A stretch of 64,000 nucleotides of DNA from Candidatus Woesearchaeota archaeon (lineage in GTDB: Archaea; Nanobdellota; Nanobdellia; SCGC-AAA011-G17; JACPIM01): contig CAZELK010000005.1 in assembly GCA_964513145.1 (NCBI GenBank), positions 21,488-85,487 on the forward strand, written 5' to 3'. Position numbers and translations under genes: made by a program. Position 1 is the stretch's first letter. Each line of letters begins with the position of its first letter. This document shows positions 6,825-10,405 of the stretch, in pieces. The notes under the pieces were generated by a model. That model was not told where the DNA came from, made no database searches, and saw nothing but the letters and a program-made list of their open reading frames with translations.

Positions 6825-7826
6825 ATGATAAAGATAGATGGGCAGCATTCTGGAGGGCAGACTTTACGTACCAGTCTAAGTTTATCAATTTTAACTCAAA
6901 AACCTTTCAAAATAATAAATATAAGGGGCAAAAGAGAAAATCCTGGTTTGCAACACCAGCATTTGACAGCAGTTAATGCATCAAAAAACATATGCAATGC
7001 CAAAGTTAAGGGCAATGTATTACATTCTAAAGAACTTGAATTTACACCTTCCAAAGTTATTCCTGGAAGGTACAATTTTGATATAGGGAGTGCAGGTTCA
7101 ACTACATTAGTTTTGGAAACACTTATGCCACCATTGTTATTTGCAAAAGAAAAATCAGTCTTGAAAATAATTGGAGGGACTTCGAATCCTTTAGCTCCAC
7201 CAGCTCTGCATATAAAAGGTGTTCTCTTATGGTATTTAAAAAATTTAGGCATAAATGTTGAAATCAATGTTGAAAAGGAAGGTTTTGTTCCAAAAGGCGG
7301 TGGAAGAATTTTAGCAAAAATTTCACCTTGCAAGAAACTAAAACCTTTGGACTTAACTGAACGAGGATCTTTAAATAAAATCTGTGTTTTTGCTGTTTCG
7401 TCACAAAGCTTAAGAGACAAAGATGTTGCAAGCAGATTGCTAGATGGATTTACCAAAGTTATTAATGATAATTTAGAACCACATAAACAATATGTTGAAT
7501 CTTTGGATCCTGGTTGTTTTATTTCAGCTATTGCTGATTACAATAACTCCAGAATAGGATATACTAATCTTGGCACTTTGAAAGTTAAAGCTGAAGATGT
7601 TGGCAGAGAATGCGCAAATAAATTATTACTTGAAATTAATTCTAATTCAACTGTTGATTATTTTACTGCAGACCAATTATTGATTTACATGGCTTTGAGC
7701 GGAAAAGGCAGAATAATTACAAGCCAAATAACAGACCATATAAAAGACAATATAGACATAATAGAGAAATTCCTGGATGTTAAATTTACAGTTAAAGATA
7801 ATGAAATAAGTGTTGATAAAAAATAA
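6825..7826 (+). CDS. rtcA: RNA 3'-terminal phosphate cyclase
   Basis: GGQTLRTSLSLS, RENPGLQHQHL, GSAGSTTLVL, GFVPKGGG, ADQLL and the catalytic His in ITDHIKDN. Confidence 0.93.
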   Translation: MIKIDGQHSGGQTLRTSLSLSILTQKPFKIINIRGKRENPGLQHQHLTAVNASKNICNAKVKGNVLHSKELEFTPSKVIPGRYNFDIGSAGSTTLVLETLMPPLLFAKEKSVLKIIGGTSNPLAPPALHIKGVLLWYLKNLGINVEINVEKEGFVPKGGGRILAKISPCKKLKPLDLTERGSLNKICVFAVSSQSLRDKDVASRLLDGFTKVINDNLEPHKQYVESLDPGCFISAIADYNNSRIGYTNLGTLKVKAEDVGRECANKLLLEINSNSTVDYFTADQLLIYMALSGKGRIITSQITDHIKDNIDIIEKFLDVKFTVKDNEISVDKK

Positions 7827-7853
7827 TTTATTTTTAAAAGTCTTTCAAAAAAA

Positions 7854-7908
7854 CTGAAAGGTTTTCGGATTTTTTAAAAACTTTCCTAAAAGTACGAAAA
7901 TATCCTGT
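7854..7908. promoter_or_regulatory. Tandem 15-bp palindromic boxes (consensus CCGAAAA-N-TTTTCGG), 20-bp period
   Basis: CTGAAAGGTTTTCGG at 7854, with degenerate copies at 7874 and 7894; upstream of the LAGLIDADG gene at 7987. Confidence 0.55.
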
Positions 7909-7986
7909 ACTGTAAAAAAATTACATCTAGAACCTATTTTAAAGTTTAAATAAAATATTAAATAATTTAAAGTATTAATTAGGGGT

Positions 7987-8601
7987 ATGGAAATTCCTCC
8001 GTTTACAAATGAGCTTGCGGAATTTGTAGGTATTTTATTGGGTGATGGTTATATAAGTCAAAATGATTATGAAGTTAAGATTTCGCTTGATAAAATTAAA
8101 GATAAAGAGTATGTCTTTTTTGTAAAAAATTTAATTTTTAATTTATTTAATATTCAAGCTAAAGCCTATCCGCGTTCTTGTGATGGTACTACAGATATAA
8201 GAATATCTAATAAAGAGTTTCATCATTATTTAACAAATGGTTTAAAGTTACAACAATCTCCTAAATTTAATCGAGCTATTATTCCAAATGAATTTTATAA
8301 TAAAGAATGCTTCTATCCTTTTTTATTACGCGGTTATTTTGATACTGATGGATGCATAACTGATACTGATAATAATGGCGTTAGATACCCAAGAGTTGAA
8401 ATGAAAATATGTAAGTCTCCAATGCAATCTCAATATATAAAAATCCTTAAAAATTTAGGAATTAGATTTGGATCTTATAGAATCGAGAATGAGGCGATTA
8501 GAATACAAATCAACGGTAAAAATGAATTAAAAAAATGGATGTTATTTATTGGTTCAGATAATCTAAAAAATATAAAAAAAGCACAAAATTTTAAAAAATA
8601 G
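7987..8601 (+). CDS. Free-standing LAGLIDADG homing endonuclease-like protein (HEG1)
   Basis: Two motifs, LAEFVGILLGDGYI and LLRGYFDTDGCI; no intein splicing residues. Its TAG stop overlaps tRNA positions 71-73. Confidence 0.85.
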   Translation: MEIPPFTNELAEFVGILLGDGYISQNDYEVKISLDKIKDKEYVFFVKNLIFNLFNIQAKAYPRSCDGTTDIRISNKEFHHYLTNGLKLQQSPKFNRAIIPNEFYNKECFYPFLLRGYFDTDGCITDTDNNGVRYPRVEMKICKSPMQSQYIKILKNLGIRFGSYRIENEAIRIQINGKNELKKWMLFIGSDNLKNIKKAQNFKK

Positions 8602-8764
8602 CGGAGAGTGGATTTGAACCACTGACCTAAACCCCAATATTTTTTTAGATATTGATCGGGTGTCTAAGACACGCATATGAGCCCATTCCGCTAATTTTAC
8701 TTAGTGACGGACACTCCTGGCTGTCCTATTGCAGTTGTAAGATTTTTTCTTAACAATCTCCGCT
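8599..8764 (-). tRNA. Initiator tRNA-Met(CAT) with four introns: 7/8 (8729-8757, 29 nt), 28/29 (8685-8705, 21 nt), 37/38 (8662-8675, 14 nt), 43/44 (8629-8655, 27 nt)
   Basis: Spliced product AGCGGAG-TA-GGAC-AGCCAGGAGT-GTCC-G-TCGGG-CTCATAA-CCCGA-AGGTC-AGTGG-TTCAAAT-CCACT-CTCCGCT-A is a fully paired cloverleaf with A1:U72 and G29-31:C39-41 initiator marks. Each intron has a 4-bp central helix and 3-nt bulge register. Confidence 0.9.
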
Positions 8765-8802
8765 ATAGTTGGAGTGCCATTAAAAATTAGCTTGAAATGT
8801 CT

Positions 8803-9525
8803 TTATAAAATTTCGTATTTTTTTAACAATTGATTAAACCTATTTTCTAAGAAAGGTATTCTAAAACCTATCTCCTTAAATTTTTCAAAATTTTCTTTTC
8901 TATAGATGGAAACTCTATACTGACCATTAGGTTGTTTTAATCTTGGTGCATATGTAAGATGAGAATTTATATCTATACTTTTTAATAAATTATAGATATC
9001 TTTAGCAAAAAATTCATCTCCACTTACAAATCTTATTTCAGTAAGCTTCTTTAGAATTGTACCTTCCATATCAAAAGCTTGTTTTAAATATTCTATTTTT
9101 ACTTTTTTTGGAGAATCAAATATCCAATTAGGAACACGCATTTGCTCATCTGATTTTGGAAGTTTAAGAATATAATATAAAAACCAAGCTAATGTTTTTG
9201 AGTTTACATAAATTTGTTTACCTTTAGAATTTTCTTTTCTAAATAAGATTATTTTATTTGAGAAGAGTTTTATAATTAAATCATTAAATAATTCTATTTT
9301 TCTTGGGTCTTTCTTTTGATGAAAAAATGTTCGCATTAAATCTTTTATTAAACTACCATCTGGCATTAAACCCATTAGTGAAGATACATCTTCATTTAAA
9401 ATAAATGGTAATTTAATAAAAATCGGTTTAGTCATATTAGAAACTTTTAATTGAAAATATTCTTCTTTTTGTTCTATCTTAAAATATTCTCTTAAATTAT
9501 TTTCATTAATAGATTTGTACTCCAT
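8803..9525 (-). CDS. Free-standing LAGLIDADG homing endonuclease-like protein (HEG2)
   Basis: Motifs VSSLMGLMPDGSL and YLKQAFDMEGTI; ends 38 bp upstream of the tRNA 5' end on the same strand. Confidence 0.8.
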   Translation of the reverse strand: MEYKSINENNLREYFKIEQKEEYFQLKVSNMTKPIFIKLPFILNEDVSSLMGLMPDGSLIKDLMRTFFHQKKDPRKIELFNDLIIKLFSNKIILFRKENSKGKQIYVNSKTLAWFLYYILKLPKSDEQMRVPNWIFDSPKKVKIEYLKQAFDMEGTILKKLTEIRFVSGDEFFAKDIYNLLKSIDINSHLTYAPRLKQPNGQYRVSIYRKENFEKFKEIGFRIPFLENRFNQLLKKYEIL

Positions 9526-9594: not shown

Positions 9595-9639
9595 ATAGCA
9601 AGCCTTTATTCTTGAATTAATAGTAATAAAAAATAAGTT

Positions 9640-9745
9640 CCGAAAAGTTTTCGGTGTCCAGTTCTTTTTTCTGAAAGATTTTTAGAGAAATCGGAAAGTT
9701 TACGAATTTACCGGAAGATTTACGATTTATTTGAAGAATGTTTGG
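9640..9745. promoter_or_regulatory. Array of 15-bp palindromic boxes
   Basis: Perfect CCGAAAAGTTTTCGG at 9640-9654; variants at 9671, 9691, 9711 and (weak) 9731 with a 20-bp period. Confidence 0.65.
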
Positions 9746-9827: not shown

Positions 9828-10040
9828 ATGGCAGAAGTTAAAGCTATTATTCGAAAATGGGGGGATTCTCTCGCAATTATCATACCCAAAGATATTGCCA
9901 AATTAGAAAATATGAAACCTAATCAAAAAGTAAATGTCATTGTGAAAAAAAATATTGACTTATCTGATTTATTTGGCAAATGGAAAACTAAAAAAACTGC
10001 ACAAGATTTGAAAAATGAATCAAGAGAAGATTGGGTGTAA
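9828..10040 (+). CDS. AbrB/MazE-type antitoxin (VapB-like)
   Basis: IRKWGDSLAIIIPKDI motif; likely start is ATG 9828, with a TATA box ~30 bp upstream. Confidence 0.85.
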   Translation: MAEVKAIIRKWGDSLAIIIPKDIAKLENMKPNQKVNVIVKKNIDLSDLFGKWKTKKTAQDLKNESREDWV

Positions 10041-10042
10041 CA

Positions 10043-10405
10043 ATGTATTTTTTTGATACATATGCGCTTTATCAATTAGCCAAGGGCGAAGAAAATTATA
10101 GTATATTTAAAAATAATGCCGAGATAGCGACCTCCTTATTAAACTTGTATGAATTATATTATTCTTTATGCAGAGATAAAGAAGAAAAATTAGCGGAAGA
10201 TTTTTTTAATCGATTATTACCCTGCTGTTTAGATATTACTTCTGATGACATAAAACAAGCAGCCAAGATCAGATTAAAATACATTAAAAAGAAATTATCC
10301 TATATTGATGCTTTAGGTTATGCTCTATCTTGGAGGCAAAATATTTTGTTTTTAACTGGTGATAAGGAGTTTGAGAATTTAGAAAATGTTTATTTTTTAA
10401 AGTAA
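10043..10405 (+). CDS. vapC: PIN-domain toxin (VapC family)
   Basis: YFFDTYAL, LNLYEL, LSYIDALGY and FLTGDKEF PIN motifs. Confidence 0.85.
   Translation: MYFFDTYALYQLAKGEENYSIFKNNAEIATSLLNLYELYYSLCRDKEEKLAEDFFNRLLPCCLDITSDDIKQAAKIRLKYIKKKLSYIDALGYALSWRQNILFLTGDKEFENLENVYFLK

Follow-up and report, generated by a model that had tools for sequence, protein, structure and literature searches.

Two free-standing LAGLIDADG genes beside a four-intron initiator tRNA gene of a DPANN archaeon: probable members of a mobile family that docks on tRNA genes

How does a single initiator tRNA gene come to stand between two LAGLIDADG homing endonuclease genes (HEGs), and do these genes account for the four introns that it carries? 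The locus lies in a stretch of 64 kb (64,000 nucleotides, hereafter the window) that is part of contig C5 of the Candidatus Woesearchaeota source genome G000 (0.98 Mb, 28% G+C, 98.8% complete); the same stretch is also present, in public reads, in groundwater metagenomes of two studies. From comparison of sequences and predicted structures we consider it likely that both genes, HEG1 and HEG2, are active, mobile, site-specific selfish LAGLIDADG genes, with the gene for initiator tRNA-Met (iMet) as their landing site and homology arm. Two same-genus relatives of G000 recur in the comparison, namely G003 (locus L002) and G001 (slot locus L071). The locus is made up as follows, with positions given in the window.

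6825 to 7826, plus strand: rtcA, encoding RNA 3'-phosphate cyclase (Pfam RTC, 2e-75).
7812 to 8598, plus strand: block of about 780 bp found in G000 and not in G003 (blastn and alignment of the window with L002).
7987 to 8601, plus strand: HEG1, gene for a two-motif LAGLIDADG endonuclease of 204 amino acids, convergent with the tRNA gene.
8599 to 8764, minus strand: tRNA-iMet(CAT) gene with four introns (manual exon assignment and spliced alignment).
8765 to 8802, minus strand: spacer of 38 nt from the HEG2 stop to the tRNA start, read from the sequence.
8803 to 9525, minus strand: HEG2, gene for a two-motif LAGLIDADG endonuclease of 240 amino acids, upstream of the tRNA gene on the same strand.

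Both proteins are of the monomeric two-motif type and match Pfam LAGLIDADG_3 (PF14528; HEG1 33.1 bits, HEG2 36 bits, cut-off 22.5), and HEG1 scores just below the cut-off of PF03161 (24.2 against 25 bits). The two motifs read ..LLGDG.. and ..YFDTDG.. in HEG1 and ..LMPDG.. and ..AFDMEG.. in HEG2, and the acidic position of each, already pointed out in the initial annotation of this DNA, is conserved in the relatives (two alignments). The AlphaFold2 model of HEG1 (predicted local distance difference test, pLDDT, 92.6) finds its best Protein Data Bank (PDB) match in I-Tsp061I (Foldseek 6.7e-13, template modelling score 0.72), with intein endonuclease domains and I-DmoI as further matches, while the model of HEG2 (pLDDT 70.9, residues 1-40 disordered) is closest to the TliVMA intein endonuclease domain (2.8e-9) and I-DmoI; both models show the pseudo-symmetric double alpha-beta-beta-alpha-beta-beta-alpha fold. 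As had also been claimed, neither protein holds intein splicing residues: no Hint domain, N-terminal Cys/Ser block or C-terminal His-Asn was found, and matches to intein-containing proteins span only the endonuclease domains. Both genes are stand-alone open reading frames (ORFs) outside any intron or intein, HEG1 being antisense to the tRNA; an identity as inteins was rejected, since each has its own start and stop and lacks the splicing parts. Both HEG1 and HEG2 are intact, and both evolve under purifying selection, with ratios of non-synonymous to synonymous substitution (dN/dS) of 0.11 for HEG2 (G000 against G003), 0.16 for HEG1 (against the 66%-identical relative at L143) and 0.13 for rtcA, in comparisons whose dS is near saturation. 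Among the 24 LAGLIDADG_3 matches of G000, 18 fall within open frames of 780-2013 amino acids and are read as inteins, so the genome seems intein-rich; apart from HEG1 and HEG2 its 0.98 Mb hold no intact free-standing LAGLIDADG gene, and chance placement is excluded because both touch one and the same tRNA gene.

HEG1 is optional, and its insertion lies precisely between the adjoining gene and the 3' end of the tRNA gene. One long contig of G003 carries rtcA, the tRNA gene and a HEG2 ortholog (83% amino acid identity) and is without HEG1, and its alignment with G000 leaves a clean gap of about 780 bp (7812-8598) that takes in a new end for rtcA, the HEG1 ORF and the 160 bp upstream of that ORF. 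The stop codon TAG of HEG1 (8599-8601) is the complement of C71-U72-A73 of the tRNA, exactly where the initial annotation had placed it, and in G003 it is the stop TAG of rtcA that tRNA positions 71-73 supply. Both edges of the block share the 8-nt A-rich microhomology AAAAAATA (rtcA ends in ...AAAAAATAA and HEG1 in ...AAAAAATAG), and the block contains no integrase and no att-like repeat beyond this microhomology. No leftover 3' half of a tRNA was seen by eye between rtcA and HEG1 (7827-7986), where no pattern search was run. rtcA is the conserved neighbour on this side, with 73% amino acid identity to its counterparts in G001 and G003. A second clean indel, of 681 bp and at the equal position relative to the tRNA, separates G039, which has a HEG, from G059, which has none. 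The claim that these are free-standing homing endonuclease genes is borne out. HEG1 is present or absent with precise borders, and the order-wide tie of its family to tRNA genes, described below, is typical of mobile HEGs.

Other ORFs occupy the same slot in related genomes. The slot of G001 (L071 764-1342) holds an ORF of 192 amino acids, with a partly homologous stretch upstream; it was taken up as a LAGLIDADG gene for its GLGFFKGEG motif and dropped again, as no Pfam family matched and hhalign against LAGLIDADG gave 1% probability, and an Atlas feature search returned a weak LAGLIDADG lead only (0.80-0.85). In the pair G025/G051 the flanks are 89% identical, whereas replacement has affected the tRNA allele (acceptor, T-arm and introns) as well as the downstream ORF: the slot of G051 (L104 2485-3381) holds an unrelated ORF of 298 amino acids with a helix-turn-helix-like start, which begins with the same codons (MEKE.VL) as the LAGLIDADG gene in G025 and has phage endonuclease-like clusters nearest to it in the Atlas feature search, a lead only. 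Because the two parts were exchanged as one block, block transfer of a nuclease gene with its tRNA allele does occur at the iMet locus.

On the other side of the tRNA gene, the HEG2 stop lies exactly 38 nt (8802-8765) away from base 1 of the tRNA (8764), which has the same orientation, again in full agreement with what had been noted, and the spacing is identical in G003. An A/T-rich TATA-like stretch within this spacer is probably the tRNA promoter. G001 has no HEG2 and is rearranged in this region, and synteny between G000 and G003 stops about 70 bp upstream of HEG2, so that the tRNA flank on the HEG2 side varies between genomes; its content is a pair of genes for a MazE-type antitoxin (PF04014) and a PIN toxin (PF01850) just beyond HEG2 in G000 (9828-10405), an ORF resembling a transposase in G001 and different genes again in G003. 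The HEG-tRNA-HEG block is flanked on either side by short palindromic repeats of the type CCGAAAA/TTTTCGG (7854-7880 and 9600-9745), which may be regulatory sites and which complicate read joints.

Is this arrangement peculiar to one genome? A profile built from the iMet-linked members matches 152 of the 240 genomes of the order at E<=1e-25, and genomes across the order have several free-standing HEG1-like ORFs each. We examined 51 such ORFs with their flanks for tRNA-like genes, defined heuristically by a TTCRANT loop and a G+C-rich 7-bp acceptor pair within 68-400 nt. A tRNA-like gene lies within 170 bp of about 42 of the 51, about half of them overlapping or abutting it, and 37 tRNA-like ends were counted within 200 bp of 41 HEG ORFs. 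Among the loci that have 3-kb flanks, the density of tRNA-like genes is 1.54 per kb within 300 bp of a HEG and 0.094 further away, against 0.035 in the whole of G000, an enrichment of about 16-fold locally and up to 44-fold. In the HEG tree the iMet-linked genes form two separate clades (Shimodaira-Hasegawa-like approximate likelihood ratio test, 100 each), one made up of HEG1 and the genes of G039 and G042, and the other of six members from six genera and six families; all are convergent on the tRNA 3' end except that of G042. Other clades track other acceptor types and geometries, each clade being tied to a single tRNA and a single arrangement, and the distance from HEG to tRNA end is near-constant across proteins of about 27% identity. 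Several iMet-linked ORFs (L014, L024, L055, L067 and L145) run into the tRNA gene, so that their C-terminal GFEP tails are antisense translations of the T-arm, and in G039 the overlap of HEG ORF and tRNA gene amounts to 86 nt and covers part of the 43/44 intron.

The closest relatives of HEG1 come from other families and from a record with another phylum label, all of them beside iMet, whereas the same-genus genomes lack HEG1. Two records, one with the label Woesearchaeota (66% identity) and one with the label Aenigmatarchaeota (46%), have relatives at the iMet 3' end, and a single-protein scan gave four loci, with the nearest-relative records labelled Woesearchaeota and Nanoarchaeia. HEG1 being optional, and its relatives standing at the same spot in other families and under another phylum label, we read the HEGs as site-specific mobile genes that land at tRNA genes. 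HEG2-like ORFs stand beside iMet in G003 and G029 and beside other tRNAs in two further genomes. The G029 homolog (L003 1468-2637; 37% identity), downstream of a five-intron iMet gene, bears a C-terminal extension of about 140 amino acids that looks winged-helix-like by eye. Decayed HEG copies with internal stops are present in G016 and G111.

As a mechanism we propose that the enzyme would cut iMet loci without a HEG, in or beside the conserved tRNA gene, and that repair from a HEG-bearing copy would then duplicate the HEG into the cut locus. The tRNA gene would serve as the homologous arm of this repair, so that the donor tRNA allele, introns included, could be co-converted partly or wholly, and the join on the other side of the HEG would be made by microhomology. 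Introns in the 3' half of the tRNA may add protection from self-cutting. Such introns would not be required, nor would HEG activity be the main route of intron turnover here.

Several observations count against mobile genes that land at tRNA genes. The population contigs show no clear HEG-less allele; they are short metagenome records that break at the conserved tRNA exons, and the one contig joint that skips HEG1 (7839->8564) has a shorter side of 21 nt with repeats nearby and speaks neither for nor against such an allele. About 9 of the 51 HEG ORFs received no tRNA call from the heuristic finder, and the HEG tree comes from a quick maximum-likelihood search, not a finished one. In G000, two further free-standing genes of the same family are each split into two ORFs (C7:16390-17430, L147 1392-2432, and C6:16617-17773, L148 1617-2773), and no tRNA or Rfam RNA was detected beside these remnants. 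Furthermore, HEG2 keeps its place in both G000 and G003 and is under strong purifying selection, a pattern that a host function would explain as well.

The second part of the question concerns the introns. The iMet precursor is called neither by ARAGORN, with or without intron options, nor by Rfam at its gathering score, the Rfam tRNA match being weak (21.7 bits). Its parts are, on the minus strand:

Exons: 8764-8758, 8728-8706, 8684-8676, 8661-8656 and 8628-8599.
Introns: 7/8 (29 nt), 28/29 (21 nt), 37/38 (14 nt) and 43/44 (27 nt).

Joined, the five exons give 75 nt that ARAGORN calls as tRNA-Met(CAT), with an A1:U72 pair and three G:C pairs (GGG/CCC) in the anticodon stem. Spliced alignment yields a nearly identical mature iMet from more than 60 other genomes with the interruptions elsewhere, and the introns are real for this reason; the multi-intron tRNA between the two HEGs had been described correctly. 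The whole precursor folds with z = -3.8, and the 37/38 intron, read by hand, has one mismatch in the central helix of its bulge-helix-bulge (BHB) motif. G000 encodes the splicing endonuclease EndA and the tRNA ligase RtcB; the latter (C6:75368-78150) seems split by an insertion, with an 879-amino-acid open frame and an N-terminal piece 1.4 kb upstream, and the interruption seems to be an intein.

Heavily interrupted tRNA genes are the rule in G000, as in this near-complete genome ARAGORN calls only 15 tRNAs and Rfam gives only 24 hits, weak to strong. Most of its tRNA genes hold at least one non-canonical intron (e.g. C1:145720-145846, C2:34370-34488 and C11:25339-25477; in G003 loci L149-L173). 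More than 20 intron-bearing tRNAs of G000 have no adjacent HEG and their introns also differ from those of the sister species; putative tRNA orthologs of G000 and G003, which all lack a flanking HEG in G000, show intron differences as large as those in iMet. Several different tRNAs of both genomes share a related intron sequence, AAGCTTTT..AAAAGCTTAAGCAAAA, and this family suggests intron transposition independent of HEGs.

Of the other explanations, the one that survives best is collaborative homing with intron immunity: the enzymes would recognise uninterrupted iMet, the introns at 41-54 (for HEG1) and 7/8 (for HEG2) would split the site and protect the carrier, and homing would spread the introns, which would accumulate as a result. 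We regard it as possible, if rather doubtful. To survey the co-occurrence of HEGs and introns, as the initial annotation had proposed, we mapped the iMet alleles that were found regardless of HEGs (42) or through a HEG (20), counting as HEG-bearing those with a family HEG convergent on the iMet 3' end; the pattern used to find the HEG-less sample overlooks alleles interrupted at 54-72, which counts against the immunity reading of the contrast, and the statistics are uncorrected for relatedness. An intron between positions 40 and 60 is present in 26 of the 29 HEG-bearing and 18 of the 33 HEG-less alleles (Fisher two-sided 0.004), and in the HEG-blind sample in 9/9 against 18/33 (Fisher two-sided 0.016, one-sided 0.011). 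Intron-free alleles number seven of 33 without a HEG and one of 29 with a HEG (Fisher two-sided 0.06); this single allele with an abutting HEG, in G078 (L121 1393-1467), has the variable loop AAGTC, with the rare A45, against an otherwise invariant AGGTC. One stretch of about 22 bp, where the gene is most strongly conserved, takes in every intron from 41/42 to 53/54; only two genomes, both with HEG2, have the 7/8 intron, and in three same-genus pairs (G025/G051, G056/G033 and G009a/G013) the HEG accompanies an intron of the 3' half.

Against these stand HEG-bearing alleles without any 3'-half intron, namely G078 with none at all, G121 {15/16, 37/38} and L145 {29/30, 37/38}. The HEG is present or absent on identical intron sets in G039/G059 and G055/G030; the introns therefore did not block the gain of a HEG, or else they outlive its loss. 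When related pairs only are compared, about three speak for the link between intron and HEG, one against it, and about six are ties. The mean number of introns, 2.3 with and 1.8 without a HEG, does not differ significantly (Mann-Whitney p=0.09). Moreover, many HEG-flanked tRNAs of other types are intron-free at 71-77 nt, and the equal intron differences between G000 and G003 in tRNAs with no nearby HEG, together with the repeated intron family, fit a turnover of another origin. A 28-30 intron occurs in 5/5 clade-A alleles against a background of about 31%, a post hoc count that was not used.

The co-occurrence survey points, in uncorrected figures, to an excess of HEG-bearing alleles with an intron at 40-60, but to no significantly higher intron number, and it left the three exceptions just named. 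For the expected co-inheritance as a block the result is likewise divided: a HEG and its intron-bearing tRNA allele vary together as a block in G025/G051, where both were exchanged, in G056/G033 and in G000/G003, whose intron sets differ, whereas in the two pairs with identical sets the HEG varies by itself. Block differences and 40-60 enrichment alike are suggestive only. The G000 allele could possibly be a chimera, genus-like in its 5' part with the 7/8 intron and derived in its 3' part from a HEG1-clade donor, and the intron positions fit; against this weigh the introns of L143, the closest HEG1 relative, which are not clearly homologous to those of G000, and the equal turnover in other tRNAs. 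The further claim that the HEGs explain the accumulation of non-canonical introns found no support, given the comparable intron numbers, the identical sets with and without a HEG and the equal turnover in tRNAs without one. About as doubtful is the widest form of the idea, in which tRNA-docked endonuclease genes would be a main selective force on, and a main vehicle for, non-canonical tRNA introns in DPANN, with the introns at 41-54 and 7/8 splitting recognition sites and homing copying alleles between species.

Domesticated LAGLIDADG proteins, acting as WhiA-like DNA-binding regulators of tRNA genes or as RNA maturases in the folding of multi-intron pre-tRNA and no longer as mobile endonucleases, are an unlikely explanation and fit the data poorly. 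Purifying selection as strong as that on rtcA, a HEG2 retained at one position in two species, structural matches that include WhiA and the bI3 maturase, and the winged-helix-like look of the extension of the G029 homolog would suit such a role. On the other hand, the genes are patchy within genera and bounded by clean indels, their catalytic acidic residues are retained throughout, copies with internal stops occur in G016 and G111, and HEGs also adjoin intron-free tRNAs and show no tie to intron number. The characterised domesticated LAGLIDADG forms have reportedly lost the catalytic acidic residues. That the HEGs are passive passengers, riding islands into tRNA genes as integration hot spots or persisting where insertion is harmless, also fits the data poorly and is very improbable, for although the HEG2 side is variable from genome to genome, the HEG1 indel is an ORF with 160 bp and neither integrase nor att-like repeat beyond 8 nt, the clades track tRNA identity at a near-constant distance from the tRNA end, and the enrichment beside HEGs is 16- to 44-fold.

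With mobile genes that land at tRNA genes as the preferred reading, the locus can be set beside known systems. SegB lies in the tRNA gene region of phage T4. Free-standing seg and mob endonucleases of T4-like phages spread by intronless homing (PMC2988022). In the T4-like phages and in the present case the endonuclease ORFs are optional and intergenic; in the phages the spread proceeds by cutting of HEG-less genomes and flanking co-conversion, with one enzyme acting in a tRNA region. The T4 enzymes, however, are of the GIY-YIG or HNH type and belong to phages, whereas here LAGLIDADG genes stand at tRNA gene ends of cellular genomes with a specificity of clade to tRNA. Collaborative homing is known from the free-standing F-CphI beside an ORF-less group I intron of psbA in cyanophage S-PM2 and from T4 mobE with the defunct I-TevIII intron (PMC6083498, PMC3984707, PMC2790892). 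There, as here, a free-standing endonuclease gene adjoins a conserved gene with ORF-less introns, and the proposed logic is the same: the enzyme would cut the intron-less allele, the intron would protect, and both would be inherited jointly. The present case differs in its cellular archaeal genome and LAGLIDADG enzyme, in the protein-spliced BHB mini-introns (14-29 nt) of a tRNA as opposed to self-splicing introns of group I in protein-coding genes, and in a link of target and intron that is only proposed and has exceptions. Free-standing endonucleases with intronless and collaborative homing are thus established in phages, and the tRNA-docked family is new here.

Among archaeal enzymes, the monomeric two-motif I-Tsp061I and I-DmoI (PDB 2dch, 2vs7, 1b24), of about 190-200 amino acids, are the best structural matches, yet they are encoded inside rRNA BHB introns, whereas HEG1 and HEG2 lie outside introns and flank a tRNA, and identity is 15-18%. 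Intein endonuclease domains (TliVMA, 7qsu/7qss, and PI-PfuI) are closest to HEG2 by sequence (E 3.9e-6) and close in fold; unlike these, HEG2 is a stand-alone ORF of 240 amino acids with no Hint domain and no host extein. Group I introns in the rRNA of DPANN are reported to contain LAGLIDADG genes (PMC6125680), and full-text literature searches turned up no account of such genes docked on tRNA genes of Archaea.

Non-canonical tRNA introns have a history of their own in Archaea. Sugahara and Fujishima reportedly described the transposition of tRNA introns and the multi-intron tRNAs of Thermoproteales, and Randau and Soll are said to have proposed that introns or splits in tRNA genes give protection from mobile elements. 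The genomes studied here resemble the Thermoproteales in their many non-canonical introns, in fast turnover between close species and in related introns within different tRNAs, and protection from mobile DNA is again the proposed benefit of the introns; they differ in belonging to a DPANN lineage and in offering a concrete candidate attacker, the tRNA-docked endonuclease family.

The gain and exchange of archaeal tRNA introns at odd positions is an old question, for which the iMet locus and its relatives give a candidate mechanism, and natural alleles with and without a HEG and with varied intron sets are ready substrates. The family would supply compact nucleases with long, conserved (predicted) targets. 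Even if the link to introns should fail, tRNA genes as dedicated cellular homing sites of free-standing LAGLIDADG endonucleases would open a new chapter for selfish genes.

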